Part shown: positions 11,162-39,527 of the stretch, piece by piece | How positions within the stretch are numbered: position 1 is the first letter of the stretch | Layout of the letters: each line of letters opens with the position of its first letter | The notes under the pieces: generated by a model | Told to the model about the DNA's origin: nothing | Database searches by the model: none | Seen by the model: only the letters and a program-made list of their open reading frames with translations | Sequence record: SRR2962707_5284 | Length of the DNA stretch: 56,408 nt | Strand: one strand, 5' to 3' | Made by a program: the position numbers and the translations under genes

Positions 11162-12106
11162 CTATGTGCTTTTGGATGGACGTCCTAACATCGGTTCAGA
11201 CATGGTGGAGATGCATTGTTGAATGCTTTCCCGTAACCAGCTATGCGCCGCGTCGGGGGTGTTATGGCGATGCCACTGCATGCTGTTTTTGTGCAGCGGT
11301 GTTTCGAAAGGCAGTTCAAAAATCCTTAAAGGCATTGTCGCGGCATAGTGGTTTGCCAAGCGCCGCTGGACTGTTGCGATACGTTGGGTGTTCAAAAGGA
11401 ACTCTGGCGTATGGTCAAATGCGCCGACAACAATCTCTGCGCGGCGCGTGACGCCGACATCAGACACGAATATCTCGTCAATGGGGGTCATGCGATAGGC
11501 GCCCAATCGAACAACAACGTGGCCTAAGCGTTCATAGGTTTGAAGTGTCAGTTCTTCGCCAATTTGATCGTTTTCATCCCAAGAAATCGCAACGAAGTCT
11601 TCGGTGTACAACGGCACCTGAGGCAAGTGAGGCTGCAAATATTGTTCAAGCGAGATGATCAGATCGATTTCACCGGACACGAATTTGTCAATTGTACGGG
11701 TTCCGGTCAAAGGCCAAATATCCAACTGCATATTTGGGGCTTTTTGTTGTATCTGGGCTGCGACTTTGGCTAGGAAAACACGGATTGAATAGTCCGGCGC
11801 GGCGATACTAAAGGATCGTTCGCTCGTTCTTGGGTCGAAGGGTTCGCGCTGGATCACATCTGACTGTACGTCCGTCAAAATGCGCCGCACGGGTTCGGCC
11901 AATTCGAGCGCGAGCTGTGTTGGCTTCATCCGTCGACCAATCGCCACAAAAAGCTCGTCGTTGAAGAATTCTCGCAAGCGACGCAGCGCGGCACTCATCG
12001 CCGACTGGCTTAGATTGATTTTTGCGGCTGCATTGGACACGGATTCTTCCGTCAGAAGTGCATCCAATGCCACTAATAGGTTCAGATCTAGCTTGTTGAA
12101 ACGCAT
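11162..12106 (-). CDS. NodD/FdeR-like LysR regulator #1
   Basis: MRFNKLDLNLLVALDALLTE.SVS.AA..INLSQSAMSAALRRLREFFNDELF is the NodD-type N-terminus; true start ATG 12106. Confidence 0.92.
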   Translation of the reverse strand: MRFNKLDLNLLVALDALLTEESVSNAAAKINLSQSAMSAALRRLREFFNDELFVAIGRRMKPTQLALELAEPVRRILTDVQSDVIQREPFDPRTSERSFSIAAPDYSIRVFLAKVAAQIQQKAPNMQLDIWPLTGTRTIDKFVSGEIDLIISLEQYLQPHLPQVPLYTEDFVAISWDENDQIGEELTLQTYERLGHVVVRLGAYRMTPIDEIFVSDVGVTRRAEIVVGAFDHTPEFLLNTQRIATVQRRLANHYAATMPLRIFELPFETPLHKNSMQWHRHNTPDAAHSWLRESIQQCISTMSEPMLGRPSKST

Positions 12107-12141
12107 CCCAATTTTCCCCCAGACACCAAAGAATGAATGAA

Positions 12142-12178
12142 ATTCATACGTCGAATTAATTCTACCAACTTGATTAAT
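12142..12178 (+). promoter_or_regulatory. nod-box-like LysR site upstream of the FAH-monooxygenase-kinase-enolase operon
   Basis: ATT-catacgtcg-AAT-taattct-ACC-aacttgatt-AAT (9/7/9 spacing). Confidence 0.6.
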
Positions 12179-12220
12179 ACTTGGGCAGGAGTCAAGTTTT
12201 GGCATCGAAAGGGAAGAGAA

Positions 12221-13207
12221 ATGAATCAAAAATTTGGATTGGTTTCGGTCAGCAAAAGTGCTGAGCAAATTGGAGCCGCAATCAGCGTGAGCGATCGTAT
12301 TTTGCCGTGTGCAACGGTTCCTGGCCTAGAAGCTTTTACGACAATTAACGCGATCCTTTCGCAGTGGGATGACGTCTTTCCGCTGCTGCAATCCACCGCA
12401 AATAATATTGCTGCCGGTAAACATGACGCGGATCTTCTTAGTTCCGAAGACGTGACCTTTCATATGCCACATACGCCGCCTCAGGTGTTTTGCACGGGCG
12501 CGAATTACCACCGTCACGTTGTTGAAATCATCATGGACCGCTTTTCAGATCGCTTTCGCGAGGATGGAAAGAGCGACGAAGAAATTCGTGACCATGTCGA
12601 AAATATGATGACAGAGCGGGCCAAGAACGGAACGCCTTACATCTTTTCGCGCATTCAATCATCTTATGCCGGACCGTTTGACGACATTGAGTTGCCAACC
12701 CATTCGACCCAACCTGACTGGGAAGCAGAGCTGGCGCTTGTCTTCAAAAAGGGCGGTACCAAGATTTCGCGGGAAAACGCGATGGACCATGTTGCAGGCT
12801 ATCTTGTGGTCAACGACATCACCAACCGCGACCAGATTTTTACCGCTGATCCTAAGGATTTGGGTGCTGACTGGCTGCATGCCAAACATAGCCCCGGGTT
12901 CTTTCCAATGGGGCCGATGATCGTACCTGCACAGTTTGTCCCAGATCCGCACAATTTACAGATCACGCTCAAGTTGAACGGGAAAACCATGCAGAATGAG
13001 AAATCAAACGACATGATTTTCGATATTCCGCGTCAGATTGAGGTGCTTAGCTCATATGCGCGGATCATGACGGGTGACGTTCTGGCAACAGGGTCACCTG
13101 CTGGAAACGGCACACATTACAACAGATATCTGCAGCCCGGTGATATCGTAGAAGTCAGCGTCGAAGGGCTGGGAACGCAAAAAAATCGCTGTGTTGCAGC
13201 GGATTAA
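12221..13207 (+). CDS. Fumarylacetoacetate hydrolase (FAH) family protein #1
   Basis: CTGANY, PDWEAEL, VNDITNRD, GSPAGNG; start ATG 12221 after GGGAAGAG. Confidence 0.92.
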   Translation: MNQKFGLVSVSKSAEQIGAAISVSDRILPCATVPGLEAFTTINAILSQWDDVFPLLQSTANNIAAGKHDADLLSSEDVTFHMPHTPPQVFCTGANYHRHVVEIIMDRFSDRFREDGKSDEEIRDHVENMMTERAKNGTPYIFSRIQSSYAGPFDDIELPTHSTQPDWEAELALVFKKGGTKISRENAMDHVAGYLVVNDITNRDQIFTADPKDLGADWLHAKHSPGFFPMGPMIVPAQFVPDPHNLQITLKLNGKTMQNEKSNDMIFDIPRQIEVLSSYARIMTGDVLATGSPAGNGTHYNRYLQPGDIVEVSVEGLGTQKNRCVAAD

Positions 13208-13228
13208 CTCAGGTTTGGGAGGACCATT

Positions 13229-14357
13229 ATGGCTATTCAAAAAGCACTCGTAATTGGCGGCGGCATTGGCGGTCTTTGTTCTGCGATTGCCCTACGACAA
13301 AAAGGGATCGAAGTTGATCTGATCGAAAAGTCGGCAGCGAATTACGTTTGGGGCATTGGTATTATCCACCAAACCAACGCTGTGCGCTGAGGCGATGCTG
13401 GGTGTCGCGGATGAAGTGCTGAAGCAAGGCTGGGGGTTCTCTGGCGGTCGCATTCACAACAAAGCAGGTCATTTGATCCAAGAAATTGCGGCCCCACCTG
13501 CCAAAGAAGGTGCGATGCCTGGCGATATGGGCATCACACGTCCGCGTCTGGCAAAGATCTTGCAGAACAGGGCAGAAGCGCTTGGCACCAAGATTACTTT
13601 TTCGATGACCTGTAATGTCACAAAAAACGGCTCCGATGGTGCGGAAGTCACCTTCAGCAACGGTGAAGTCGCAGAGTATGACTTGGTTGTCGGTGCAGAC
13701 GGCATCTATTCCGATCTGCGTAACGAGCTTTGGGGTAAAGAATTTGCGCCGAAATTCGCTGGTCAAGGCGGATGGCGTTGCAACATTCCTCGCTTGCCTG
13801 AGGTCGATCAAGTTTGGTTGTTTCTGACAGATAAAGGCAACTGTGGCCTGATGCCTTTGGCTGACGATTTGATGTATATCTGGACCACCTCCAACGAACC
13901 GGATGCGAGCTGGAAAGAAGAATCTCAACTTCCCGCCGAAATGCACGGCATCGTGTCTGAGGTTGGCGGCATCTATGGCGAAATGCGGGACAAGTATTTG
14001 GTCGAAGGTGCAGACGTTATGTACCGGCCCTTTGAATATGTTGACCTGCCACGTCCGTGGCACAAGGGCTCGGTCGTATTGATCGGGGATGCCTCACACG
14101 CGTCAACTGCGCACCTCGCACAGGGGGCTGCAATGTCGATGGAAGATGCCATTGTGTTAGCGGAAGAGATTGAAAAAGCTAGCAACACACCGGATGCGCT
14201 GATCGAATGGGAAGAGCGCCGCTATGAGCGTTGTGACTGGATGGCAAAGACATCTCTGAAAATTTGCCAGCACGAACAGGGCCTTGTCGACGATCCCGGA
14301 TTCAACCTCATGGGCACTATGATTGAAGGTCGCAAAAAGGCGATGGCCCCTTTCTAG
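13229..14357 (+). pseudogene. FAD-dependent aromatic monooxygenase, frameshifted at ~13386
   Basis: GGGAGG RBS, ATG 13229: MAIQKALVIGGGIGG...HQTNAVR then TGA at 13388. The rest (AEAMLGV...GADGIYS...IGDASHA...AQGAAM) continues in another frame. Collinear with the paralog at 29185-30306. Confidence 0.85.
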
Positions 14358-14377
14358 GCTCCCGAAGGATATAACCA

Positions 14378-15397
14378 ATGGACCACAATAGATTCGACCC
14401 GGAAGGCGCCGATTACAAAAGGCTTGTGACATCGCTCCGTGGAATGGGGCTTGTGACAAGCGCTGAACCACGGATCGTTCCTCTGACAGGTGGCGTTTCG
14501 TCTTTGATCGTTTTGGTCGAAGATGGCGATACAAAATTCTGTGCAAAAAGTGCCTTGGCGAAACTGAAAGTCGCCGAAGACTGGCTGGCGCCGGTGCACC
14601 GCAACCAGTCAGAAGTTACATGGATGCGCACTGCTGGAAAAATCGTCCCCGACGCTGTCCCAGCAGTTTTGGGGGAGGACGCGGCACAAAACGTCTTTGC
14701 GATGCAATGGTTGGACCCCAAAGAACATCCGGTCTGGAAGCAGCAGATGATGGACGGCGATGTCTCGGTCGAATTGGCGCGTCAGATGGGATCGGCATTG
14801 GGCCGCATTCACGCAGACACCGCAGGCGACGCCTCAGTTGCGGCGCAGTTTGCAAATGACGCGGATTTTGATGCGCTGCGCCTTGATCCGTATTTGCGCA
14901 CCACAGCCAAGGTTCATCCGGACGTGGCCGAGCAATTGTTTGCCATTCTGGACAAGACGGCCAGCACGGGGCTTGCCTTGATCCATGGTGATGTCAGCCC
15001 CAAAAACATCCTTACAGGCCCGAAAGGCCCTATCTTGCTGGATGCGGAATGCGCCACCTATGGCGATCCGGCTTTTGATCTGGCGTTTTGCCTGAACCAC
15101 TTGATCTTAAAGGCGGTTCATCTGCCAGATTACAAAGAGGCCTTGGCGCAAAGCTACAGGGCGATGGTGGAAAGCTACCTATCCCAAGTGAATTGGGAAC
15201 CGGTCGCAGATCTGGAAGCCCGCACTGCGGTCTTGTTGCCGGCTTTGGCTCTGGCCCGCGTCGATGGCAAATCACCGGTCGAATACTTGAGTGAAGCCGC
15301 CCGCACACAGGTGCGCGGTATGACACTTTGCCTTGTCAAAACACCAGTCGATGGACTGGACATATTACTGAAAAATTGGATGGAGAACTTGTCGTGA
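14378..15397 (+). CDS. Aminoglycoside phosphotransferase/methylthioribose-kinase-like small-molecule kinase
   Basis: LTGGVSS P-loop, HGDVSPKNIL, LLDAEC..YGDPAFDLA. Confidence 0.88.
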   Translation: MDHNRFDPEGADYKRLVTSLRGMGLVTSAEPRIVPLTGGVSSLIVLVEDGDTKFCAKSALAKLKVAEDWLAPVHRNQSEVTWMRTAGKIVPDAVPAVLGEDAAQNVFAMQWLDPKEHPVWKQQMMDGDVSVELARQMGSALGRIHADTAGDASVAAQFANDADFDALRLDPYLRTTAKVHPDVAEQLFAILDKTASTGLALIHGDVSPKNILTGPKGPILLDAECATYGDPAFDLAFCLNHLILKAVHLPDYKEALAQSYRAMVESYLSQVNWEPVADLEARTAVLLPALALARVDGKSPVEYLSEAARTQVRGMTLCLVKTPVDGLDILLKNWMENLS

Positions 15398-16677
15398 GCA
15401 CGTTGATCGAAGACATCAGAGCCCGACGCATTTGGGATAGCCGTGGCCGTCCTACGGTTGAAGTTGACGTGCGTTTGCAGAATGGCAAACGCGGTCGCGG
15501 GGTTGCGCCTGCCGGTGCCTCACGTGGTGTAAACGAAGCCGTTGATTTGCGTGATGGTGGGGACCGTTTTGGTGGCATGGATGTGACCAACGCGCTGGCC
15601 AAAATCAAAACTGATGTGGCCCCTGCAATCATCGGGTTGGACGCAATGGACCAACGCGCCGTCGACAACGCGCTGATCGCGCTGGACGACTCGCCGAACA
15701 AAGCAAACATCGGCGGCAATACGACGGTTGCGACCTCGATGGCGGTTCTGCGTGCAGCGGCAACCTCGTCTGGGGGGGCGCTGTGGCGTTACCTCGCGGA
15801 TGGCAAAAACGTCCGCCTTCCATTGCCCGAAATCCAGATCTTCGGTGGCGGGGCCCATGCGGGACGTCGCGTTGATATTCAGGACTTCATGATCATGCCG
15901 TTGGGCGCTGAAAGCTTCAGCCATGCCATGGAAATGGTTTGCAACGTCTATGCCGCGGCGGGCGAGCTGATGTCGCAAAAAGCGCCATTAACCGGCGTGG
16001 CGGACGAGGGCGGTTACTGGCCAAACTTCGACAACAACGAAGAAGCTTTGGACATGCTGACCAAGTCGATCGAGCGGGCAGGGTACAACAACGACCAAGT
16101 GATGATCTCGCTGGATATTGCGGCCTCTGAATTCCATGACAATGGTCAGTACCGTTTGGGCCTCGAAGACCGCGCCTATGACACCGGCGAATGGATCGAC
16201 GTGTTGGGCCGCTGGATCGATACCTACCCGATCATCTCAATCGAAGATCCTGTGGACGAGCTGGACCACGACGGCATGGTCGAATTCACCAAACGTTTCG
16301 GCAGTCGTTTGCAAATCATTGGTGACGACTACCTCGTGACCTCGGCTGATCGCGTGAAACAAGCGCAAGAGATCGGGGCTTGTAACGCGGTTCTGATCAA
16401 AGCCAACCAGGTTGGCACGATCTCGGAAACCTTCGACACGCTGGAAGCGGCGCGCGCCAAAGATTGGGGTACGATTGTTTCGGCGCGTTCAGGTGAAACC
16501 GAAGACACCATCATTTCTGATCTGTCCACCGGTTGGGACGCGGGTCAGTTGAAGGTTGGATCTTTCACGCGCTCTGAGCGTCTGGCCAAATGGAACCAAG
16601 TGCTGCGCATGGAAGACATGCTGGGTGACAAGGCCGTCTATGCTGGCCGCAGCGCACTGCCGAAAGGTCTTCGCTGA
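15394..16677 (+). CDS. eno: Divergent enolase paralog
   Basis: DSRGRPTVEV, PAGASRG, GGAHA, DEGG, LDIAASEF, SIEDP, GDD, LIKANQ, SARSGETED, QLKVGS; GTG overlaps the kinase stop. Confidence 0.9.
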   Translation: MSTLIEDIRARRIWDSRGRPTVEVDVRLQNGKRGRGVAPAGASRGVNEAVDLRDGGDRFGGMDVTNALAKIKTDVAPAIIGLDAMDQRAVDNALIALDDSPNKANIGGNTTVATSMAVLRAAATSSGGALWRYLADGKNVRLPLPEIQIFGGGAHAGRRVDIQDFMIMPLGAESFSHAMEMVCNVYAAAGELMSQKAPLTGVADEGGYWPNFDNNEEALDMLTKSIERAGYNNDQVMISLDIAASEFHDNGQYRLGLEDRAYDTGEWIDVLGRWIDTYPIISIEDPVDELDHDGMVEFTKRFGSRLQIIGDDYLVTSADRVKQAQEIGACNAVLIKANQVGTISETFDTLEAARAKDWGTIVSARSGETEDTIISDLSTGWDAGQLKVGSFTRSERLAKWNQVLRMEDMLGDKAVYAGRSALPKGLR

Positions 16678-17633
16678 TGAAAGCCATCCTTCATTACCGC
16701 GCAGGTCCGATCCTGCGCCAAACCCTCGCGGATAATCCGCCAGCGGGCTGGGACGTTGTCGTTGTCGATGAAACCGACGTTGAAACGTTTGAGCGTGAGC
16801 TGGCAGATGCCGATGTGCTGTTGCACGTTTTGCAGCCAATTGGTCGCGATCAAATGGAAAAAGCGCCCAAGCTGAAGCTGATCCAAAAGATCGGCGTTGG
16901 GGTCGACACGATTGATCTTGTTGCGGCCGAGGAACTTGGCATCGGTGTGGCCAACATGCCGGGCACCAACTCTCAAGCCGTAGCTGAAATAGCGATTGGC
17001 CTGATGCTGTCTGTTCTGCGTCAGATCCCGATGTTCGATGCGTCGATGCGCAAAGGCACGGGCTGGTCGATGCCACCTGAACAGCTAGAACGGTCGGGCG
17101 AGATTTCGGGCCGCACCGTAGGCTTCATTGGCTTTGGTGAAGTGCCTCGTCGCATCGCGCCAATCCTGACAGGCTTCGGGGCCAAGATCATCTATCACGA
17201 TATGGTCGAACACGATGGGTTTGGTGCGACGAAGCGCAGCCAGGAAGACGTGATGACCGAGGCTGATATCGTCTCGCTTCACGTGCCCTTGGTCGACAGC
17301 ACCCGTGAATTGATCCGCGCTGAAAACATCGCGAAGATGAAAGATGGCGCAGTCCTGATCAACACGGCTCGTGGCGGTCTGGTCAACGAAGCCGATCTTT
17401 TTGAGGCGCTGCAAAGCGGCAAACTACTCGGAGCGGGGCTGGACGTTTTGAACCAGGAACCCGCACCCAAAGAGACCCCGCTACTGTCTCTGCCGAACGT
17501 CGTGGCGTTGCCGCATGTTGCCTGGCTCACGCCTGAGACCATCACGCGCAGTTTGGACGTCGCCTTCAAGAACGCTGAGCTGGCCGTGAAGGGCAGCGAT
17601 CTTATCAATCAAATCAAACCCGTGAAGCGCTAA
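16677..17633 (+). CDS. D-2-hydroxyacid dehydrogenase family protein
   Basis: GVGVDTID, GFIGFG, INTARGGLV, GLDV..QEP, LPHVA; TGATG coupling. Confidence 0.92.
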   Translation: MKAILHYRAGPILRQTLADNPPAGWDVVVVDETDVETFERELADADVLLHVLQPIGRDQMEKAPKLKLIQKIGVGVDTIDLVAAEELGIGVANMPGTNSQAVAEIAIGLMLSVLRQIPMFDASMRKGTGWSMPPEQLERSGEISGRTVGFIGFGEVPRRIAPILTGFGAKIIYHDMVEHDGFGATKRSQEDVMTEADIVSLHVPLVDSTRELIRAENIAKMKDGAVLINTARGGLVNEADLFEALQSGKLLGAGLDVLNQEPAPKETPLLSLPNVVALPHVAWLTPETITRSLDVAFKNAELAVKGSDLINQIKPVKR

Positions 17634-17674
17634 GGCGTTCCGGAATAGCCATAAAGCTATCTTAGGAGGATAAA

Positions 17675-18670
17675 ATGGCACGTAAGCTACTCTCAAAATT
17701 GACCCATCTGGTCCTGACGACCCCGAAACTCGAAGAGTCGTTCAAATTCTACCATGACGTTATCGGCCTTGAACTGTCAGGCAAGGAAAACGGATCCTAC
17801 TTTATGCGGGGTTGGGGTGAGCACTACATGCACTCCATCGAGCTGAAGGAAGGTCCCGTAGGTTCTGTCGAATGCATCGGCTGGCGCGCACAGGGTGAAG
17901 AAGAGCTCGAGCTGGCTGTCGCCGCTATCGAAGCTACCGGCCAAGGCATTGGTTGGGTTGAGCCAAACTTTGGCCGTGGTCGTGCTTACCGCTACATGGA
18001 CAAATCTGGTCACCAGCACGAAGTGTATTGGGATGTTGTTCGCTACAAGGCGCCAGCTGACGAAGCCCCAATTTTCCCCAACCGTGCGCAGCGCTACAAG
18101 CCACGGGGTTGTGCCGTGCGTGAGATCGACCACGTGACAATCAACAGCCCGGATATCGAAGGTGATATTAAGTGGTTTGGCGAAACTTTGGGTCACCAGT
18201 ACATGGAATTCATTGAAACACCTGACAACAAAAAGGTGTTTGCAATGACCACAACAGGAGAACGCGGTCACGACATGGCCATCGTGCCTGAGCTGCCCGG
18301 TCTGCGTGGTCGTGTAAACCACATCGCTTTCTGGTGTGACCAGCGTGTTGAAATGTACCGTGCAGCTGAAGTTCTGCTTGATGCGGGTGTCCACATTGAA
18401 TTTGGTCCAGGCCGTCACGGTTTGGGTGAGCAAGACTTCTTGTACATCCGTGAACCATCTGGTCTGCGCATCGAATTCAACGCAGGTGGTTACCGTTTGG
18501 CGCAGCCTGACTGGGAACCCGTTGGTTGGAAAGTCTCCGAAGGTGCGAACGATTGGTACAAAAACCAGACGCCTCCGCACTCCATGTTCGAAAGCTTCCC
18601 AGCTGAAGCAGAAGTTGAAGCTTCGGAAGAAGCGAAACAGTACTTCCGCGACACAACATTCTTCGAATAA
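17675..18670 (+). CDS. Extradiol ring-cleavage dioxygenase (catechol 2,3-dioxygenase-like, VOC)
   Basis: IDHVT, HDMAI, VNHIAF, GPGRHG, FLYIREPSGLRIE metal/catalytic motifs; strong TAGGAGGA RBS. Confidence 0.92.
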   Translation: MARKLLSKLTHLVLTTPKLEESFKFYHDVIGLELSGKENGSYFMRGWGEHYMHSIELKEGPVGSVECIGWRAQGEEELELAVAAIEATGQGIGWVEPNFGRGRAYRYMDKSGHQHEVYWDVVRYKAPADEAPIFPNRAQRYKPRGCAVREIDHVTINSPDIEGDIKWFGETLGHQYMEFIETPDNKKVFAMTTTGERGHDMAIVPELPGLRGRVNHIAFWCDQRVEMYRAAEVLLDAGVHIEFGPGRHGLGEQDFLYIREPSGLRIEFNAGGYRLAQPDWEPVGWKVSEGANDWYKNQTPPHSMFESFPAEAEVEASEEAKQYFRDTTFFE

Positions 18671-18750: not shown

Positions 18751-19782
18751 TTACAAGCCGAGCAGAGCAGCGGCAGTGCCGCCCATGACGGCCTCGCGCG
18801 TTGCCTTGTCCGCCAATGATTTCGCAAGGCGATCAACGTCATAATCTCCCATGTCAAAGGCGTAGTCTGTGCCAAACGCCACGCGATCTGCACCGACATT
18901 CTCGATCAAATACCCAAGATAGGTGTCGTCAAACAGCACCGTATCAAACCAAATTTTCCTTAGGTAACTTGAGGGCGGATTGGCGCAGTTCTGAATTTCC
19001 GGGCGCACGGACCAAGCGTGATCAGACCGACCAATATAATGGGGTAGGTAGCCGCCGCCATGGGCCGCCAACACTTTTAGATTTGGGTAGCGGTCAAAAA
19101 CACCAGAAAAAATCATGTGGGACAGGGCAATTGTCGTCTCGGCAGGTTGCCCGATCGTGTTCGATAGGTAATCCCGGTTCAAACGTTTCCCCAGCGATGT
19201 CCCGAGCGGGTGGATAAACACCACGGCCCCGGTTTCTTCTGCCGTCTGCCAAACCAAATCAAGACTTGCATCAGACAATTCAAGTGGACCAACGGCTGTA
19301 GAGATTTCAAATCCCTTCAGCCCTGCCGCCATAAGGTCTTTTATCTGCTGGGCGGCCAGTTCCGGATGCTGCAAAGAGACGATACCAAGTGCAGCGATAC
19401 GACCGTCCCCCTGAGCGACAATGTCCTGCATTGCCTCATTGGCCAATCCAACAAGGTCTGTCGCAAAGGCGTCATCCGCCCAATAGCTGTAGATATGTGG
19501 AGAAGGGCACACGACCTGAAGGTCAATTCCCATGTTGTCCAGGTCGGTCATCCGCGCATCGAGTGACGCAAAGCGAGCGCCTGCCTGTGGCAACATCACG
19601 GTGCCATTGTGCTTCATTGATGCTTCGCCAATGCCCTCGGCCATCATTTTCATACCAGCCGCAAATTCTGGTCGATGTGAGATCAGCGCATCGACCTTTG
19701 GGGCACCGGCATGACCGTGAATATCGATTACACGAACATCCTGGCGCGGTGCAGCAGTGCTGGGTACATATTTATCAGTCAC
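18751..19782 (-). CDS. Amidohydrolase_2 family protein (ACMSD-like decarboxylase/hydratase)
   Basis: IDIHGH, FIHP, AHGGG, FGTDY; start uncertain (GTG 19782 preferred; ORF open to 19839). Confidence 0.88.
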   Translation of the reverse strand: MTDKYVPSTAAPRQDVRVIDIHGHAGAPKVDALISHRPEFAAGMKMMAEGIGEASMKHNGTVMLPQAGARFASLDARMTDLDNMGIDLQVVCPSPHIYSYWADDAFATDLVGLANEAMQDIVAQGDGRIAALGIVSLQHPELAAQQIKDLMAAGLKGFEISTAVGPLELSDASLDLVWQTAEETGAVVFIHPLGTSLGKRLNRDYLSNTIGQPAETTIALSHMIFSGVFDRYPNLKVLAAHGGGYLPHYIGRSDHAWSVRPEIQNCANPPSSYLRKIWFDTVLFDDTYLGYLIENVGADRVAFGTDYAFDMGDYDVDRLAKSLADKATREAVMGGTAAALLGL

Positions 19783-19845
19783 AATAGGGGTCTTTCTCGA
19801 CAGAGATTGGGCGGCAGTTGCAAGAGGCCGATCCAGCAATAGCCA

Positions 19846-20769
19846 TTAATTGACATAGTCATTTGTGGGTAGGTTTGAGGCTGCTTCCTGTATCACGTCG
19901 CGCAACCAGACGATGCCGGGGTCATGGGCTCTGTATTCGTGCCATTGCACCATTTGTCGAACGGGCGGCATATGAAATGGCATCGGATAGGTCACAAGGT
20001 TGGCCATCGGCGCGATGGTTTGCGCGAGCCGTTTATGCACCGTCGCAATTCTATCCGTTTGAGAAATCAAATGGGGCAACGTAGAGAACGAGAAGGTCTC
20101 GATCTCAATCCGGCGGGTGATGCCCGCCTTCTTCAATAGGAAGGATTCTCCGGTCAACGTTCCGTTCTGCATCTTCATGGAAGCGTGGGGGGCGGACTCG
20201 TAGGTAATTCGATCCATTGTGCAATCGCCGTACTTACCATCGCCCCATGCAGCCACGACGTAGCGATCTTCGAACAGAAGTTCAGCCGGGTGACCGGGAG
20301 ACAGGAAGATTTCAGGCGTTACCAGCAAATCAATCTCGCCGCGCTCCAACAAGATCTGTGGTGAGTCCGTGGGGGGGCGCATGTTGATGCCAACTGTTGC
20401 ATTCTGTTTGCCCAGAATCTTGAAAACCTCTGGCATCAAAACACGGATTGTGTAGTCCGACAGCAAAATGTTGAACGTGCGAATTGAGGCATCCGGATGG
20501 AATTGTGGTTGAGAGTCTATGGTCGCTTCGATCCTAACCAGAATGTCACGAATGGCCGGGCGCATGGCCTCTGCGCGGGGCGTGATTTCCATCCGCCGTC
20601 CGACCTGCACGAGCAACGGGTCATCAAAATAAGTGCGCAACCGTCGCAATGCATTAGACATTGCCGATTGGCTCATGAACATTTTGTCCGCAGCGGCTGA
20701 CACCGATCGAAGTTCGATCATGTGATCGAGAGCTGTCAGTAGATTTAGATCAAGTTTCTTGAATCTCAT
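19846..20769 (-). CDS. NodD/FdeR-like LysR regulator #2
   Basis: MRFKKLDLNLLTALDHMIELRSVSAAADKMFMSQSAMSNAL; N-terminus nearly identical to #3. Confidence 0.92.
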   Translation of the reverse strand: MRFKKLDLNLLTALDHMIELRSVSAAADKMFMSQSAMSNALRRLRTYFDDPLLVQVGRRMEITPRAEAMRPAIRDILVRIEATIDSQPQFHPDASIRTFNILLSDYTIRVLMPEVFKILGKQNATVGINMRPPTDSPQILLERGEIDLLVTPEIFLSPGHPAELLFEDRYVVAAWGDGKYGDCTMDRITYESAPHASMKMQNGTLTGESFLLKKAGITRRIEIETFSFSTLPHLISQTDRIATVHKRLAQTIAPMANLVTYPMPFHMPPVRQMVQWHEYRAHDPGIVWLRDVIQEAASNLPTNDYVN

Positions 20770-20832
20770 CTTCTTTTTTCCGGCTCTTTGCTAACTGATG
20801 TGTCACATTAACGCCTCAGCAGCCATTTCTAC

Positions 20833-20870
20833 ATTGAATTGATTGGATACCAACTATTTGCATTCTCAAT
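20833..20870 (-). promoter_or_regulatory. nod-box-like site upstream of LysR#2-amidohydrolase
   Basis: Minus strand ATT-gagaatgca-AAT-agttggt-ATC-caatcaattc-AAT (9/7/10). Confidence 0.5.
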
Positions 20871-21059: not shown

Positions 21060-21096
21060 ATCCGTTTCCCGCATGCCTCCCATTCACATTTAAAAT
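21060..21096 (+). promoter_or_regulatory. nod-box-like site upstream of the porin
   Basis: tATC-cgtttcccg-CAT-gcctccc-ATT-cacatttaa-AAT (9/7/9). Confidence 0.6.
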
Positions 21097-21156
21097 TCAA
21101 CTTATCCAGTGGCCTAGTGGATAAAAAGCCATCAAATTTCGAGGAGGAATAACGGG

Positions 21157-27360: not shown

Positions 27361-28002
27361 CTATCCTTCTTGCTGCGCAAAAAGCTCTGCTTCTTTTTTC
27401 AGTGCACGTTGGACAGCCGGACGTTGCTCCATCCGTTCCGCATGTGCGGCCCAATTGGGCAATACACTGACGTCATAATCGACGCTGAGCAGGCGGTACC
27501 AGATCCAATAAATATAGGCGTCCTGGATGGACCATTCATTGCCATACCACCAAGGGCCTTTTGCCAAAGTGTCCTCGACGATTTTGGCCATCATCACCAT
27601 GCCGGCATGGCCCTTGTCGCTGACGGATTTCTGGGCATCCTCGCCGTCGACAATAAACATAGGCATCCGCATGCGTGTGACCAACGGATGCAGAGTGTCG
27701 GCACAAAACGCGAGGTTCGCTGTAATCTTGGCATCTGCAAATGGGTCGGACGTCTGTGGTAACAAAGTTGGGAATTTCGTACCCAGATATCGGGCAATTG
27801 CCACGTTCTGGGTAAGAGGGCCATCCGGTGTGACCAGAAGCGGGACTTTACCGGCGGGGTTCATGGCCAAATAGTCTGGTCGCTTGTGTTCGCCTTTCAT
27901 AAGGCGCACTAGCTTGGTGTCAAAGTTAGCGCCGGCTTCTTCCAGCGCTATAAGGGGAACCCGGGCACAAGTGCCCGGCGCAATATAAAGAGTATAGCTC
28001 AA
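27361..28002 (-). CDS. Glutathione S-transferase (beta-class-like)
   Basis: LYIAPGTCA, MNPAGKVPLL, LTQNVAIARY, RPAVQRAL; TTG start overlapping the hydrolase stop. Confidence 0.88.
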   Translation of the reverse strand: MSYTLYIAPGTCARVPLIALEEAGANFDTKLVRLMKGEHKRPDYLAMNPAGKVPLLVTPDGPLTQNVAIARYLGTKFPTLLPQTSDPFADAKITANLAFCADTLHPLVTRMRMPMFIVDGEDAQKSVSDKGHAGMVMMAKIVEDTLAKGPWWYGNEWSIQDAYIYWIWYRLLSVDYDVSVLPNWAAHAERMEQRPAVQRALKKEAELFAQQEG

Positions 28003-29159: not shown

Positions 29160-29184
29160 GAGAGTTGGCCCCTTGATAATTAGA

Positions 29185-30306
29185 TTAGATTGGTTCGCAC
29201 ATCATGCCGATGGTTTGCCCATTCAGCGCACCGATATCGAAAGGTGGGATCTTGCCCATCTGCATTTCGCCAATGCGAATTGAGCTTTTTGCAACATGTG
29301 AGACGCGCGGCATCCGGCGTGTGCGATAAGCTTCGAATGCCTCTTCCGGTGCGGCTTTGGAGAGCTCCTCGGCCAACACAACCGCGTCCTCGATTGCCAT
29401 TCCAGCCCCCTGGGCCAGATGCGGCGTGGACGCATGAACCGCGTCACCAAGCAATACGACGCGGCCTTTATGCCAATCGCCTTCGAGCAGAATGGTTTCC
29501 ATCGGGCGCGCAACGACACCTTCGTCATCAGTTATCTGATCAATCAATGCCGCGATCTGGGGAGGGGGCATTTTGCGGGCTCGATCGCGCAAAGCTGCGG
29601 CAGCGCCTTCAACCGGCAAGGGTGTTTTGTCGGGCTCTTGTGATACAAGGAACATGTACATCAGGTCGGTTGTCATCGGGACAAGGCCTGCGTTCAACGG
29701 ACCTGCAAACACATGAATGCCATCCAGATCTGCCGGGCGTGGGAAGTTATACCGCCAAACCCATTGCCCTGTATATTCAGGGGCAGGTGCCTCTGGCATA
29801 ATTGTCTGGCGTGTCTGCGAGAAGATCCCGTCCGCGCCAATGACGATGTCATAACGCCCTGTAGTGGCGTCCGAGAAAGTGACGTCTACTCCTTCACCAT
29901 CATCGTTCATCTCAGTAACCGTGGTGCCAAGGCGTACTTCAGCACCAGCCTTTTTGACACCTTCCGCAAGAACCAGCTGAAGATCCGGGCGGCGAATTCC
30001 TGCATTCGAAGGATACTCAGGCCCCGCCAGGCGTGGTGTTTCAAATTTTGCTTCCTGGACGCCCCCTGGGCCCACAAACAATGTCGTGCTGTCAAAACCA
30101 AAGGAATGAGACAGGTAGTTGTCCAGAATTCCCAACTGGTTCATCACCCGGACAACATTCATCTGCTGAATGATGCCCACGCCATAGACGCTCCAGTCGT
30201 TGGAACGTTCAATGATGTCGACCTGAATTCCCTTTTGGCGCAGCGCGATACCCGCTGTAAGTCCGCCAATTCCCCCGCCGATGATGAGTGCTGTTTTAGC
30301 TTGCAT
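29185..30306 (-). CDS. FAD-dependent aromatic monooxygenase (FdeE-like)
   Basis: IIGGGIGG, VYGVGIIQ, GADGIFS, LLGDAVHA, LAQGAGMAIED; start ATG 30306 after GGGAGG. Confidence 0.92.
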   Translation of the reverse strand: MQAKTALIIGGGIGGLTAGIALRQKGIQVDIIERSNDWSVYGVGIIQQMNVVRVMNQLGILDNYLSHSFGFDSTTLFVGPGGVQEAKFETPRLAGPEYPSNAGIRRPDLQLVLAEGVKKAGAEVRLGTTVTEMNDDGEGVDVTFSDATTGRYDIVIGADGIFSQTRQTIMPEAPAPEYTGQWVWRYNFPRPADLDGIHVFAGPLNAGLVPMTTDLMYMFLVSQEPDKTPLPVEGAAAALRDRARKMPPPQIAALIDQITDDEGVVARPMETILLEGDWHKGRVVLLGDAVHASTPHLAQGAGMAIEDAVVLAEELSKAAPEEAFEAYRTRRMPRVSHVAKSSIRIGEMQMGKIPPFDIGALNGQTIGMMCEPI

Positions 30307-30360
30307 GTAGAGACCTCCCATGTTTGTCGCTAAGCTAAAACTCAATTGAGTATTTTAAAA

Positions 30361-30397
30361 ATTGAAAGGCACAATTGAACGTATCGGTTTCGTGGAT
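30361..30397 (-). promoter_or_regulatory. nod-box-like site upstream of the monooxygenase operon
   Basis: Minus strand tATC-cacgaaacc-GAT-acgttca-ATT-gtgcctttc-AAT-tttta; very close to the rhizobial nod-box architecture. Confidence 0.75.
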
Positions 30398-30399
30398 AC

Positions 30400-31305
30400 C
30401 TACCTGAATTCTTTGGTTGCCTCCAAAAATACGTTCCGTAGCCATGCGATCCCAGGGTCATTGTCACGATAGGCATGGCTTTGCAGCATTTGGCTCAGCT
30501 TGGGCATTTCAACGGGAAGGGGATAAATCGACAACTCGCCTTGAGGAGCAACAAGTTCGGCCAGTCTTTTGTGTACCGTTGCGATCCGATTCGTCCCAAT
30601 CACAAGATGTGGCAACGTGGAAAACGAAAACGTGCGCACGTCAACATTTCGCTTAACGCCAGAGTTTGCCAAGATTGTTGTCTCAACCGATTTTTCCGAA
30701 TTCGGCGGGACCATCACGGCGTGAGGCGCGGAACAATAAATGGCTTCGGTCATTTTGACATTACCATATTTCCCGTTTTTCCACGCAACGACGACGTATT
30801 CATCCTCAAACAATTGGGTGGCAGGGTGTTCTTTAGACAAGAATATGTCTGGAGAAATCAGAAAGTCGATCTCGCCACGTTCCAGCAATGCATGAGGCAA
30901 GTCCGTCTGAGGGCGTAAATTCAATCGGATGGTGGCGTTTTGTTCGTTCAGGAAACGCAACACGTTCGGCAGGATGACCCGCAACGAATAATCTGACAAA
31001 AGGATGTTGAAGACCCGGGTCGAGACGTCGGGACGGAATTCAGGTTGCGACTCAATGGTGGCTTCGATCCGCACAAGAATGTCGCGAATGGCTGGGCGCA
31101 TCGATTCTGCGAGCGGTGTGATCTCCATGCGGCGGCCAACCTGCACCAAGAGCGGGTCGTCAAAGTATTCACGCAACCGTGTCAGCGCGTTGGACATTGC
31201 GGATTGGCTCATGAACATTTTGTCGGCTGCAGCCGACACCGACCGAAGTTCAATCATGTGGTCAAGAGCCACCAAAAGGTTGAGATCGAGTTTTTTGAAA
31301 CGCAT
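30400..31305 (-). CDS. NodD/FdeR-like LysR regulator #3
   Basis: MRFKKLDLNLLVALDHMIELRSVSAAADKMFMSQSAMSNALTRLREYFDDPLL; divergent from the VOC operon. Confidence 0.92.
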   Translation of the reverse strand: MRFKKLDLNLLVALDHMIELRSVSAAADKMFMSQSAMSNALTRLREYFDDPLLVQVGRRMEITPLAESMRPAIRDILVRIEATIESQPEFRPDVSTRVFNILLSDYSLRVILPNVLRFLNEQNATIRLNLRPQTDLPHALLERGEIDFLISPDIFLSKEHPATQLFEDEYVVVAWKNGKYGNVKMTEAIYCSAPHAVMVPPNSEKSVETTILANSGVKRNVDVRTFSFSTLPHLVIGTNRIATVHKRLAELVAPQGELSIYPLPVEMPKLSQMLQSHAYRDNDPGIAWLRNVFLEATKEFR

Positions 31306-31332: not shown

Positions 31333-31369
31333 ATTTGTCCAATCAATGCATGGCATTTAATCTTACAAT
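31333..31369 (+). promoter_or_regulatory. nod-box-like site upstream of the VOC-Rieske-cyclase-TRAP operon
   Basis: cATT-tgtccaatc-AAT-gcatggc-ATT-taatcttac-AAT-tttt (9/7/9). Confidence 0.7.
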
Positions 31370-31424
31370 TTTTCGATAGGTTACCAATCGTTAAACATAG
31401 GCTGCAAACAGGGAGTGATTGCAT

Positions 31425-36008: not shown

Positions 36009-37025
36009 TTATTCGCCTGTCATTTTGCGGGCCTCTGCCATGGCCGCTTCCCATTGTTCGATCAATTCAGCACCATTTGGGACACGCTTGTCAAAACTAG
36101 CTTTGAGCTGTGGACCAAGGGCTTCTTTCATGGCGTTCAGCTCTTCTGGGTCAATTTCATTGATCGTGTGACCGTCTGTTGCCTTTACAAAGGCTTCGCC
36201 GTCGGCTTCCCACTGATCGACGATTGCGCCCATCTGGCGTGTCGTGTCACAGCCTGAATTGGCATCGAGCACGGCACGCGCTTCGTCTGACAGAGCTTCG
36301 TAGCGTTCGCGCAGCATAAAGACCATACCAGTGGCGCCGCCTAACGGAACGTTCATGTGGTCGGTTGTAACTTCTTGCAAGTTAAACGCCGGGAACGCGG
36401 TGAAAGTCATAAAACTACCGTCCGCCGTGCCACGCTGCAAAGCTTGATAATGCTCTGGTACAACAATCGACAGCGGTGTGCCGCCATAGGCCGAAACGAT
36501 TTGCGATGCGGTTGGGCTGCCCACCATGATCTTCTTACCTTCAAGCGCTGTCATATCTGTGACAGGGCTATCCTTTAGGTGAACAGATGATTGCGGGAAG
36601 GGCACAAAGAACAAAGGCATATAGTCGCTAAGCTCTTCATCAAACGCGCCACTTTCATAAAGCGTACAGAACGCAATCGCGTTAGCTTCTGCAGAACCGG
36701 AGACGAAGGGAACGGTTGAAATCAAGGACCGTGGGAAACGACCGGGGTTAAAAACAAGCATTCCCCAGGCAATTTGGACGATATCGTCGGTCACGCGGTC
36801 AACATAGTTGCTTGAATTCACCAACATTTGTCCGTGACGCACAGCGATCGTCAGCTCATCACCGCCTTCGGCGTTAACCTTGTCTGCCCACGGAATAAAG
36901 ACACGTTTGTTGATCGGGTGAATGATCACGTTTCCCGTCCCAAAGGTGAGCCGTTCTGCTGCAGCGGCTATTGGCGAAAGTGCGGTCGCACCAGCCAACA
37001 ATAAAGCCGTTAGTTTTTTACGCAT
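36009..37025 (-). CDS. dctP: TRAP transporter substrate-binding protein
   Basis: Signal peptide; HPINKRVFIPWA, GRFPRS, YQALQRGTADG, YEALSDEARAVLD; GGGAGG RBS. Confidence 0.88.
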   Translation of the reverse strand: MRKKLTALLLAGATALSPIAAAAERLTFGTGNVIIHPINKRVFIPWADKVNAEGGDELTIAVRHGQMLVNSSNYVDRVTDDIVQIAWGMLVFNPGRFPRSLISTVPFVSGSAEANAIAFCTLYESGAFDEELSDYMPLFFVPFPQSSVHLKDSPVTDMTALEGKKIMVGSPTASQIVSAYGGTPLSIVVPEHYQALQRGTADGSFMTFTAFPAFNLQEVTTDHMNVPLGGATGMVFMLRERYEALSDEARAVLDANSGCDTTRQMGAIVDQWEADGEAFVKATDGHTINEIDPEELNAMKEALGPQLKASFDKRVPNGAELIEQWEAAMAEARKMTGE

Positions 37026-37103
37026 GAGTTCCTCCCAAGAAATACATTAGAGACCACAGCTGGCCGATGAGCTTTAACATACTCTGAAGAGTGGTGTTTC
37101 GGA

Positions 37104-37141
37104 ATTGAATTGATTTAATGCACGATATCGATCCGATGAAT
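37104..37141 (-). promoter_or_regulatory. nod-box-like site upstream of dctP
   Basis: Minus strand cATT-catcggatc-GAT-atcgtgc-ATT-aaatcaattc-AAT (9/7/10). Confidence 0.65.
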
Positions 37142-37162: not shown

Positions 37163-37199
37163 GTTCATATTATCAATGATTGGTATTCGATTATTTCGT
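37163..37199 (+). promoter_or_regulatory. Degenerate nod-box-like site upstream of the secreted protein
   Basis: GTT-catattatc-AAT-gattggt-ATT-cgattattt-CGT-tttt. Confidence 0.4.
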
Positions 37200-37303
37200 T
37201 TTTGGAATAGTATGACCAACCGTATGATTGTCTCACGAAAAGGGAAGGGCGGTCTCGGTCACCGACACGACATTGTCCAGATCCCGTTGTGGAGGAGAAA
37301 AGA

Positions 37304-37828
37304 ATGAAGACTGTATTTGCAGCCGCAGCTATTGCCATGCTGGGCGCAGTTCCTGCAATGGCTCAGGACTATAACATCACCGTAACAAACAACTCGAACA
37401 GCACTATTGCACCGCTGATCGCTTTGGACGCACTGCGCGCTTCTGAGCTCATGTTCAACGCAGACGGTACAATTTCTGACATATTTAGAACGACAATCCT
37501 TGAAGGTGATCCGCGTCCGATGAATGGCAAGATGCCAGAGGCGGTTGCTGGTCCTGTACTGGGGAAATCAGGCCCTCCCGGTGTTATGATTGCGAAAGGC
37601 GAAACAGCGTCTGCTGATATGTTCCTCATCGGAACAAACACGTTGCGTTTCTACGCAAAGGGCAGCTACGGCCCCGGCGCTGATACTGTAATTTCAGGCG
37701 TTTACGATATTTCGATGGGCGGCGGTACTTTTGCACTGAACCATTATGACATCGGGGCTTCTGAAGGCACGAACAAGATCACATTGCTTGAAGAAGGTGT
37801 TGTGACGGTAACAATCAAAGAGAACTAA
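37304..37828 (+). CDS. Secreted protein, possibly Spondin_N-like
   Basis: Signal peptide ending AMA; YNITVTN...AP, LEGD, GVMIAKGETAS and YDIGASE recall bacterial spondin domains (YDAGTE); GGAGGAG RBS. Confidence 0.7.
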   Translation: MKTVFAAAAIAMLGAVPAMAQDYNITVTNNSNSTIAPLIALDALRASELMFNADGTISDIFRTTILEGDPRPMNGKMPEAVAGPVLGKSGPPGVMIAKGETASADMFLIGTNTLRFYAKGSYGPGADTVISGVYDISMGGGTFALNHYDIGASEGTNKITLLEEGVVTVTIKEN

Positions 37829-37847
37829 GTCTTTTTGAATACACAAG

Positions 37848-37882
37848 AAAAGGGCCCTCGCAAGCAATTGTGGGGGTCTTTT
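37848..37882. terminator. Intrinsic terminator
   Basis: AAAAGGGCCCTCGCAA-gcaa-TTGTGGGGGTCTTTT. Confidence 0.75.
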
Positions 37883-38521
37883 GCGTTGTGCAGTATGGCG
37901 ATGTGACACAACGATATCACGCGACTTTCTTGGTGGGTTTTTGTGTTGGTAAGGATGTCCGTTCTGTTTGACCGAGCAAGCCATGTATCTGGCTCGACGC
38001 TTCAGCGCGAGTCCTGCCCAGACGCACCTGCCTTGTCAGGAATTGTCGTAGACATCATACACCCTTGAACAAAGTGGGCTTGATCCGGGTGGTTGCGGGT
38101 CTGTTTGCGCGGAAGAATTCTGCATTGCGTATGCCAGTTCTGGCCCGGCCTGAAGGTCCGTCTCAAATACCTAACAAGCATTTACAGCGGTCAAAAGCTG
38201 CGCTCCGCGCAACCAAGCCGTGCCAGATCGCGGTGCGCAAACGAGTACGCGACACGCTTTCTATGTCTTGCAAAAAGATTATTGGGGAGAATGGCTGGCG
38301 CAGCAGACTCTTTAACGATGCCCATGGTCTTGTTCAGACCTTGATCGGCATCGTCCAAAAAGCATCGGGCCCATTGAGAGCGAGAATCGGCCTTTTGTTG
38401 CAGGAGACCCTGCAGTCGCCGCCTTGGTTGATTACTTGACGTCCAAGCATCCCGCAGCGGCGATACTCCGGGCAAAAACATAAGGTCGACTTTAGGCCAA
38501 CCCCATGTTTCCGTCTAAAAG

Positions 38522-39418
38522 TTAGTAGATAGCCAGGTCTTGACCGATCGAAAACTTCCCGTCGTACAGGGCCGCAACGCGTTTAATATACCCATCCGCT
38601 GTGTCGGTATCCGCAATGCCCGGAGGGAAGTGGGTCGCGACAACCTCTTTCGCCTCTGCGGCAATCGCCAGGGCAGCCAAGTCTTCTGCCTCAATGTGGT
38701 GGTGGGACAGGTGGTTTTTAATGAACTGAAGCTTTTCTTCCGGCATGTTCGGATTCATGCGGCGAATTTTGCCCATCGCAATCTCAAGATCCATCAATTC
38801 ACCTACGATGAGATCAGCCCCCTTGGCGAGCGCTTCCAGCGCTTTGCAAGGTCCGGTGTCCCCGGTGAAAACAACCACACGGTCTGGCAGATCAAAGCGG
38901 AACGACAAGGACAAGAAGCCTTCCTCGCCGAATTTATCTTCGGTGCGGTAGTGTGTATTCTCACAGCACGTCATCTTCAGGTCGTCGATTACAATTTCAC
39001 TGCCGGGCACGATTTCCGTTACCTTAACAAAATCGCGCGGATGCGGCAGGTTTTGCCCAGGAACGCCAAAGCCAATCTCATTCGGAACGTTGCAAGCCAT
39101 GACCAAGCCATCGACGATAGATTGTGTGCCGGGGGGGCCATAAATTGTCAGCGGCACTCGGCGCTGTGTCATCATGTTCAGACCGAAACAAGCGAATAGA
39201 CTGCCGATGTGATCAAAATGGTGGTGGGTCAAAAAAATGTGATGTACGTCACGAAACTCGATATTGGCGCGTCGCAGCTGACCCATTGCCCCTTCGCCGC
39301 AATCGATCAAGATTGGCGCTTCCCCATTCATCAGCACAAAAGACGGCTGAGCGCGGTTTGGATTCTGCACTGGGCCACCGGCGGTGCCTAAAGTGATAAC
39401 AGATGATGGGTTTGGCAT
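38522..39418 (-). CDS. MBL-fold metallo-hydrolase, RNase Z/AtsA (arylsulfatase)-like
   Basis: TLGTAGGP, IDCGEG, THHHFDH, FTGDTG, HH, ATHF. Confidence 0.88.
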   Translation of the reverse strand: MPNPSSVITLGTAGGPVQNPNRAQPSFVLMNGEAPILIDCGEGAMGQLRRANIEFRDVHHIFLTHHHFDHIGSLFACFGLNMMTQRRVPLTIYGPPGTQSIVDGLVMACNVPNEIGFGVPGQNLPHPRDFVKVTEIVPGSEIVIDDLKMTCCENTHYRTEDKFGEEGFLSLSFRFDLPDRVVVFTGDTGPCKALEALAKGADLIVGELMDLEIAMGKIRRMNPNMPEEKLQFIKNHLSHHHIEAEDLAALAIAAEAKEVVATHFPPGIADTDTADGYIKRVAALYDGKFSIGQDLAIY

Positions 39419-39490
39419 GGATTATCCTTTTTTGATCGGCGCTTTTACGGATTCTTTGGCAATTATAGAGGGCGTCGAAGCATCATGGAA

Positions 39491-39527
39491 ATTGAATTGA
39501 ACAATGAGATTTATCGATCTAATGGAT
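39491..39527 (-). promoter_or_regulatory. nod-box-like site upstream of the MBL hydrolase
   Basis: Minus strand cATC-cattagatc-GAT-aaatctc-ATT-gttcaattc-AAT-ttcc (9/7/9). Confidence 0.75.

Follow-up and report, generated by a model that had tools for sequence, protein, structure and literature searches.

We analyzed a stretch of DNA of 56,408 nucleotides from sequence record SRR2962707_5284 (the window, at its full length), in which the region from 11,162 to 39,527 carries three lysR genes, several units of genes for aromatic catabolism and transport, and eight nod-box-like elements (boxes). A previous reading made from the letters alone (the sequence-only reading) had proposed that eight copies of a tandem motif, ATY-N9-RAT-N7-ATY-N9/10-AAT, join scattered operons to three NodD-like LysR regulators as one polyphenol-sensing regulon. 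Our results favor an island of the fde/ifc type for flavonoid-like polyphenols, whose several promoters would be activated by one FdeR-type LysR; judged from the sequence, we hold this to be likely. The features are given below in order of position, where bits refer to the matrix described later and offsets are counted in bp from the first dyad of a box.

11162..12106, minus strand: lysR1, a LysR of the NodD subfamily in a clade of its own, 36% identical to LysR2 and LysR3
12133..12178, plus strand: three-dyad box of the LysR1 type, preceding the FAH-family operon; 14.9 bits (minus) and 10.1 bits (plus)
12221..18670, plus strand: LysR1 module, with genes for an FAH-family protein, a flavin adenine dinucleotide (FAD) monooxygenase (13229-14357), an APH-family kinase, an enolase, a D-2-hydroxyacid dehydrogenase and a catechol 2,3-dioxygenase-like protein
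18751..20769, minus strand: lysR2 (19846-20769), FdeR-type, 67% identical to LysR3, followed by an amidohydrolase-2 gene
20825..20870, minus strand: FdeR-type box preceding lysR2; exact pattern, 15.1 bits, TANNNT at offset 60
21060..21105, plus strand: weak box preceding the porin gene; one mismatch, 2.3 bits
21157..22221, plus strand: Gram-negative porin-like gene (score 0.97), no Pfam match
22300..24892: genes without a box, class II aldolase and FAH-family (minus strand) and a divergent tetR (24266-24892, plus strand), probably outside the regulon
24889..30306, minus strand: operon with FAD monooxygenase (fdeE-like, 29185-30306), alpha/beta hydrolase (fdeB-like), glutathione S-transferase (GST), cupin (fdeH-like), epimerase (fdeJ-like) and FAH-family (fdeI-like) genes
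30352..30397, minus strand: FdeR-type box, the strongest; exact pattern, 39.5 bits, TANNNT at offset 60
30400..31305, minus strand: lysR3, FdeR-type, orthologue of the single regulator in relatives
31333..31378, plus strand: FdeR-type box between lysR3 and the dioxygenase gene; exact pattern on both strands, 38.6 bits
31425..35485, plus strand: operon with VOC dioxygenase (fdeC-like), Rieske ferredoxin (fdeD-like), cyclase (fdeG-like) and fused DctQM genes, the last of the tripartite ATP-independent periplasmic (TRAP) transporter type
36009..37025, minus strand: dctP, TRAP DctP of the aromatic-binding type, conserved Arg replaced (KIMV)
37096..37141, minus strand: FdeR-type box preceding dctP; exact pattern, 22.7 bits, TANNNT at offset 60
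37163..37208, plus strand: degenerate yet conserved box preceding the spondin-fold gene; three mismatches, 15.5 bits, TANNNT at offset 60
37304..37828, plus strand: gene for a secreted protein with an F-spondin (C2-like) fold (PDB 3d34, Z 10.3, root-mean-square deviation 3.0, 141 aligned)
38522..39418, minus strand: gene for a metallo-beta-lactamase (MBL)-fold hydrolase, S4 arylsulfatase-like, without a signal peptide
39482..39527, minus strand: FdeR-type box preceding the sulfatase-like gene; exact pattern, 29.7 bits, TATAAT at offset 60

The coordinates of the eight boxes, the two copies quoted earlier and the distances of 43-105 bp to the genes were confirmed, apart from the start of the first box (12142), which is 9 bp off: the register common with its orthologue begins at 12133. 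The claim that the same motif stands before all eight units holds exactly for five of them; the copies at 12142 and 21060 have one mismatch and that at 37163 has three. Because the pattern is nearly palindromic, the strand of a box cannot be read from it, and the placement of each box on the strand of its downstream gene stands for the five whose strand is fixed by a -10 element at offset 60. The N9/N10 spacer alternative was rejected, as the 'N10' copies share the same register and the apparent variant is a third dyad.

One explanation of the boxes is that they are chance matches in AT-rich promoter DNA. Matches with one mismatch also fall inside coding DNA (12836, 13003, 21522, 38753, and 44497), so that such a match alone carries little weight. 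The exact pattern occurs at five sites in the whole window, every one intergenic, and is found in 5 of 23 intergenic regions compared with a mean of 0.023 and a maximum of 1 in 1000 dinucleotide shuffles. This test is partly circular because the pattern was derived from these same sites, and evidence from outside the window was therefore sought. A matrix was trained only on other genomes, with 99 sites that precede orthologues of the monooxygenase and dioxygenase genes; these sites were chosen by the same consensus, and no window sequence was included. Seven of the eight boxes are the seven top-scoring sites across the 56 kb window (39.5 to 14.9 bits), while the best score among 200 shuffled intergenic sets was 13.2 bits (95th percentile, 6.7). 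The enrichment over a shuffled background that the sequence-only reading had named as a check was thus obtained. The porin box rests on its position: an exact box is present in both porin orthologues (2/2), likewise 60 bp from the start. Chance is refuted for seven of the eight sites by this enrichment, the fixed -10 spacing and the conservation across genera described below, and as a general explanation it is highly improbable.

For the comparison with related genomes, species genomes were scanned with the dioxygenase at 31425, which gave 238 confirmed relatives; the best 80 loci were kept, mostly from Paracoccaceae and Roseobacteraceae. The closest relatives of the window point to a host of the roseobacter type, in line with the earlier view of a non-rhizobial, probably marine bacterium. 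Orthologues that passed set identity cut-offs and had 200 bp of DNA upstream were examined for boxes with at most one mismatch, and a box was found before 45/45 monooxygenase, 26/27 dctP, 11/14 MBL hydrolase, 8/10 spondin-fold, and 2/2 porin genes. For the dioxygenase the count was 54/79, and in 24 of the 25 misses a cluster gene lies immediately upstream on the same strand. Operon-internal genes, used as a control, gave 0/66, 0/77, 0/30, 2/61, 2/28, and 1/17, and shuffles gave 0-8%. The promoter types outside the matrix training set also scored at least 10 bits (dctP 26/27, spondin-fold 10/10, MBL hydrolase 11/14, and porin 2/2). Across the 80 loci (1.5 Mb), of the 208 sites of at least 15 bits, 184 precede a homologue of a window gene by 60-260 bp; none lies inside such a homologue, and the reversed matrix gave 0. 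Four or more strong sites are present in 27/80 loci. In five whole relative genomes the strict pattern had 15 matches (control 0), 11 of them in the cluster; the regulon is therefore local, and a genome-wide regulon was rejected. Boxes are still carried by dctP and the MBL gene where they lie on a contig other than that of the core (L131), and no box was found at the MBL gene of L117, the one family genome with this gene and without a dioxygenase match. By these criteria of sequence, the boxes are a real and well-conserved family of predicted operators.

The same genomes change the picture of scattered operons with hidden recruits, since in relatives the synteny of the fde core extends to dctP and the spondin-fold, MBL hydrolase, and porin genes. 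Six loci (L001-L004, L008, and L017) keep the order fdeI-like gene, lysR3, dioxygenase, Rieske protein, cyclase, dctQM, dctP, spondin-fold gene, and MBL hydrolase, some of them without one internal gene, and L001 and L002 also contain the porin gene. As a separate observation on gene order, the porin gene comes after the fdeI-like gene on the same strand in L001 and L002, and in the window (21157-24892) it is inverted relative to them, with the tetR-FAH-aldolase unit, which has no box, in between. Judging from these loci, the multi-promoter layout is common in fde-bearing roseobacters and is the new part with respect to the known fde switch.

The consensus of the 99 orthologous sites and the strong window sites contains three dyads, at offsets 0, 22, and 31. 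The nod-box spacing ATC-N9-GAT-N7-ATC-N9-GAT-N6-AAT is found at the same offsets, with ATY/RAT variants. The rhizobial architecture assigned to the boxes by the sequence-only reading is therefore right in its geometry, whereas the two-dyad form quoted there, ATC-N9-GAT-N7-ATC-N9-AAT, differs from the published consensus, ATC-N9-GAT-N7-ATC-N6-ATCGAT-N6-AAT (PMC4990936). The ATCGAT core ahead of the last element is absent from all eight window boxes (0/8), in which this position mostly reads TTCAAT, TACAAT, or ATTCAA. Nod-box-like sites beside rhizobial nodD genes (L082, L102, and L103) score 24-31 bits with our matrix. The start of TANNNT falls at exactly offset 60 in 110 of 146 orthologous sites, and five of the eight window boxes show the same. 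With a -10 element at this offset, the first dyad would lie near -65, and a position of about -65 is the usual place of the LysR recognition site. The second and third dyads would then cover the -35 region, in agreement with the sliding-dimer model of LysR activation (PMC11495319).

The three regulators had been described as NodD-type. They do belong to the NodD subfamily, but quick trees of 102 and 32 proteins placed LysR2 and LysR3 in a clade (node value 99) with the regulators of the fde-order operons L083 and L094, LysR1 outside it in a small separate clade (node value 100), and the NodD rows in another (node value 99). NodD orthology was rejected: forcing LysR2, LysR3, and four marine orthologues together with six NodD rows gave p 1.5e-6 in the approximately unbiased (AU) test, which covered LysR2/LysR3 and their orthologues, the placement of LysR1 coming from the tree alone. 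The DNA-binding domains of LysR2 and LysR3 are 67-73% identical to those of the L083/L094 regulators versus 55-58% to NodD, and 48 of 66 N-terminal residues of LysR3, counted by hand, are identical to those of H. seropedicae FdeR as printed in PMC12809279. LysR2 and LysR3 may respond to flavonoids. Two side observations concern these proteins. PDB entries 9IIB and 9X6W resemble NodD effector domains by sequence, and a literature search for a paper on a NodD-flavonoid structure found nothing. In addition, lysR2 itself stands behind a box (19846-20870) with a -10 element at the activated spacing and may be an inducible second-tier regulator. A fourth LysR gene (1248-2153) was rejected as part of the regulon, as it belongs to another subfamily.

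Of five close relatives, four contain a single LysR of the FdeR type and the fifth adds a weak second match, yet these genomes carry four to six boxes; one regulator therefore suffices. This bears on the proposal of one regulon, in which a common inducer would act on all eight units by way of any of three cross-binding LysRs. The recognition helices of the three proteins are indeed alike (SQSAMS[N/A]AL), the FdeR-type matrix gives the LysR1 site 10-15 bits, and homologues of the first FAH gene and of the amidohydrolase occur inside fde-like clusters of three alphaproteobacterial genomes (L124-L126), so that these enzymes may serve one pathway. LysR1, by contrast, shares only 36% identity with LysR2/3 and stands in a separate clade, and its whole module recurs in L095 (59-75% identity) with two copies of a distinct box flavor and without any TRAP, sulfatase, or fdeC-like gene within 10 kb. 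The first gene of the module was found in 0 of 301 family genomes, a count made with no positive control, compared with nine for the fde core. Taken together, a single regulon is unlikely, and there are probably two regulons side by side, with LysR1 running its own module.

Within that module, the FAD monooxygenase gene (13229-14357) is frameshifted near 13388, which indicates either a pseudogene or an assembly error; the L095 homologue is intact (about 378 amino acids). The kinase-enolase-2-hydroxyacid dehydrogenase trio (14378-17633) is conserved in L095 (59-72%), and on plasmids of Cupriavidus and Rhodococcus, matches to the kinase and to the FAH gene are found close together; the trio possibly routes a C3 ring fragment to phosphoenolpyruvate. 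In L095 the module is flanked (15226-19323) by two folate-dependent aminomethyltransferase-family genes and a LigB dioxygenase gene. The former are possible O-demethylases, hinting at methoxylated aromatics as substrates. Metagenome scans yielded one locus with the LysR1 alignment and nothing confirmed with the catechol dioxygenase, a match to which (53-55%) is present in 4/400 rhizobial-family genomes.

The catabolic role ascribed to the regulon is supported by its core genes. Between 24889 and 33532 we found homologues of fdeB, C, D, E, G, H, I, and J with 33-56% identity to the fde-order operon L083, using the gene table of PMC11069340 for assignment. The monooxygenase, VOC dioxygenase, Rieske protein, cupin, hydrolase, and FAH-family genes occur together, as in the fde/ifc gene set. 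The same regulatory wiring could also serve a non-flavonoid substrate such as a hydroxycoumarin, chromone, naphthopyrone, or algal phloroglucinol derivative, possibly sulfated. The monooxygenase groups with sphingomonad enzymes outside the fdeE-position clade, so that naringenin-type specificity cannot be assumed; the best solved relatives of the alpha/beta hydrolase are a polyketide-shortening Ayg1-like enzyme and dihydroxypseudooxynicotine hydrolase; and AtsA, the founder of the S4 arylsulfatases, was defined on 4-methylumbelliferyl sulfate, a coumarin sulfate (PMC5066984), with non-marine genera among the relatives. Yet both characterized clusters with this gene set, fde and ifc, act on (iso)flavonoids, the distance between IfcA and FdeE (36%; PMC11069340) is like that of the window enzyme to fdeE-position enzymes, and FdeE was active on flavonoids only among the substrates assayed (PMC11303751). 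We regard a non-flavonoid substrate as possible but rather doubtful.

Among the genes thought earlier not to be obviously catabolic, the porin and spondin-like labels hold, whereas the MBL hydrolase is probably a catabolic enzyme, an S4-type arylsulfatase by sequence likeness. PDB 8GYG, a named arylsulfatase that we take to be a close relative of AtsA, matched it over the full length (E-value 3.6e-65, compared with 2e-12 for the best RNase Z), with about 39% identity over about 289 residues as counted on the alignment. The S4 family is defined by an identity of 30% or more to AtsA (P28607), for which the value to 8GYG stands in. As in S4 enzymes, it has the MBL fold and the HxHxDH zinc motif, which reads HHHFDH in the window protein and is invariant as a pattern in 21/21 aligned rows. 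It differs from AtsA of Pseudoalteromonas carrageenovora and 8GYG in that no signal peptide was found in the roseobacter clade and in that the window gene is part of a cluster for aromatic catabolism and is preceded by a nod-type box. SulfAtlas (2016) lists S4 with one characterized member, assayed on an artificial substrate, and names Maritimibacter among the holders (PMC5066984). The sources consulted give no natural small-molecule substrate for S4, and nothing on 8GYG or natural substrates was found in PMC12060045 and PMC8201498. In M. alkaliphilus HTCC2654, the only match to the MBL hydrolase (58%) is the cluster gene; the orthologue in Flavimaricola marinus is 79% identical. Among 301 family genomes, nine have the dioxygenase, six the hydrolase and five both, adjacent to each other, and the link persists when three genomes chosen earlier are left out (2/3, Fisher p 0.001). 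Ten plasmid records have an MBL match; in seven of them fde-like genes are no more than about 15 kb away, in one weak ring-cleavage matches are nearby, and in two neither is the case. In 401 class-level genomes, fde-like clusters contain the three best matches outside the centre but none of four weaker ones.

The protein might instead attack a ring-cleavage product, as a phosphodiesterase or some other RNase Z-clan hydrolase, a reading with some claim although the sulfatase assignment seems the better of the two. It would agree with NCBIfam matches to RNase Z and GntH (E-value about 1e-29, under the cut-off), with the artificial substrate of the single characterized S4 member, with the presence of the MBL gene within 10 kb in only 15/43 loci that have this monooxygenase type, and with a DctP whose missing anion-binding Arg suits a neutral ligand. 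Besides the far stronger match to 8GYG, it is opposed by sphingomonad relatives that have signal-peptide-like N-termini and are placed after a TonB receptor gene, which suggests that the substrate comes from outside and is not an intermediate in the cytoplasm, and by the cluster in Croceicoccus marinus (L116), which also holds GH2 and GH3 glycosidases.

In L116 (12356-36885), fde-like genes and the MBL hydrolase gene are interleaved with these glycosidases and with glucuronate catabolism genes, and together they may equip the host for glycosides, glucuronides, and sulfates of flavonoids. In the window, a gene for a siderophore-interacting protein (39584-40381) is divergent from the sulfatase-like gene and shares the intergenic region of the box ending at 39527; a homologue directly follows the MBL gene in L117. 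This protein may handle iron chelated by catecholic flavonoids.

As to the transport genes, the Arg of the KIR motif in TRAP DctP proteins binds carboxylate. It is missing in 33 of 34 aligned DctP rows (the row that keeps it is a 29% paralogue) and kept in the solved relative 5IGA; the ligand is therefore probably not a carboxylate. The loss of this Arg favors neither a sulfate ester nor an aglycone.

A candidate substrate is suggested by seagrass chemistry. The 7-sulfates of apigenin, luteolin, and diosmetin are major phenolics of the eelgrass surface (PMC6389981), FdeE takes apigenin and diosmetin with an activity that tracks free hydroxyls at C5 and C7 (PMC11303751), and IfcA refuses 7-methoxy and glycosylated substrates (PMC11069340). 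Given this preference for a free 7-hydroxyl, a 7-sulfate would need to be removed first, and we infer that the MBL hydrolase desulfates flavone 7-sulfates and so frees the 7-hydroxyl for C8 hydroxylation. In its fullest form, a minority of roseobacters would sense seagrass-type flavones by the nod-box regulon and eat their 7-O-sulfates, through uptake by the porin and the Arg-less TRAP system, cytoplasmic S4 desulfation, C8 hydroxylation, and A-ring cleavage; we put this forward tentatively and at less than even confidence. A literature search on bacterial desulfation of flavonoid sulfates, with a coverage that excludes most subscription journals, found nothing to the point.

The proposed mechanism of the island is as follows. 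LysR3, perhaps together with its paralogue LysR2, would occupy the three-dyad operator, with the first dyad centered about 65 bp before the transcription start and dyads two and three overlapping the -35 region. Ligand binding would shift the tetramer between the two proximal dyads and so admit RNA polymerase, as in known systems. Seven boxes, six of them well supported, would couple uptake (porin and TRAP system), deconjugation (S4-type sulfatase), ring hydroxylation (FAD monooxygenase), meta-cleavage (VOC dioxygenase, Rieske protein, and cupin), and downstream steps, and the eighth would serve the separate LysR1 module for a related aromatic. The pairing of LysRs with boxes, the inducer, and the activity of the sulfatase on flavonoid sulfates are what we infer here.

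Several points weigh against this interpretation. It is based on boxes, spacing, conservation, gene homologies, and tree placement, all read from sequence, with the sliding dimer and the fde chemistry taken from known systems. The fde-order operons L083 and L094 served as stand-ins for the H. seropedicae proteins, and the kept loci are related genomes, so that counts over them are not independent trials. The monooxygenase is only 35-40% identical to fdeE-position enzymes and falls in another clade of a quick tree with long branches. The effector domains of LysR2 and LysR3 have 36-42% identity to the FdeR type and 28-37% to NodD, which therefore says little about their ligand. The score of the porin box at 21060 (plus strand, 2.3 bits) is within the shuffled null range, and neither this site nor that at 12133 has TANNNT at offset 60. 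Finally, the MBL gene is absent from the 10 kb surroundings of most loci with this monooxygenase type, its holders include soil and freshwater genera, and the relatives of the window include non-marine genera.

The closest known system is FdeR/fde of Herbaspirillum seropedicae SmR1. FdeR is a flavonoid-dependent activator of naringenin catabolism, called NodD-like in a 2017 title cited in PMC10799723, and its operator in Table S2 of PMC12809279 reads, by eye, ATT-N9-CAT-N7-ATC-N9-CAT-N6-AAT. Both systems thus have a NodD-like LysR for flavonoid catabolism in a non-rhizobium, the three-dyad spacing, the eight fde homologues given above, and regulators of one clade (LysR2/3). The window differs in having six or seven promoters rather than one known promoter, a porin and a TRAP system with no homologue of fdeA or fdeF, an added S4-type sulfatase, GST, and spondin-fold protein, a monooxygenase of another clade, and a probably marine host. 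The ifc cluster of Variovorax sp. V35, for isoflavone, is at a similar distance from fde and shares the monooxygenase, glyoxalase-type dioxygenase, Rieske protein, cupin, and hydrolase; that IfcA does not accept 7-substituted substrates fits the need for a free 7-hydroxyl. In contrast to the window, it has no cyclase or epimerase homologue, and its description, as far as it was available, mentions no nod-box regulation. With NodD and the nod box of rhizobia, the window shares the operator geometry, several boxes driving separate units, and the matrix scores given above, but its boxes have no ATCGAT core, its regulators lie outside the NodD clade, and its output is catabolism; no nod genes were found among the 54 window open reading frames scanned. 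A NodD-type catabolic switch outside rhizobia is accordingly no new concept, being already described for FdeR/fde; what is new is the multi-promoter form, which adds the porin, TRAP protein, spondin-fold protein, and MBL hydrolase. Literature searches on a marine fde regulon and on nod boxes in non-rhizobial catabolism found nothing to the point, within a coverage that leaves out most subscription journals.

Two further gene groups lie beside the region. The segment 1248-10439, with a LysR, an ABC transporter, and opine/sarcosine-oxidase-like genes, is unrelated to the boxes. The segment 40770-47681 contains adenylation-carrier-thioesterase, P450-like, deaminase-like, and fatty-acid-hydroxylase genes, a biosynthetic-looking cluster without a box.

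The use of seagrass and algal polyphenols by marine bacteria is poorly known, and here the box offers a way to tell which genes for transport and deconjugation are part of the pathway. The same layout is found in the cultured Flavimaricola marinus, Pacificibacter maritimus, and Maritimibacter alkaliphilus, which makes the idea directly testable, and the island would be a source of new sensors of the FdeR type, along with several natural operators graded in strength. If the seagrass reading is true, it would give the S4 family a natural substrate class and reveal a bacterial route for disarming the antifouling flavonoids of eelgrass, and the nod-box circuit would belong to a catabolic lineage found both in the sea and in soil.

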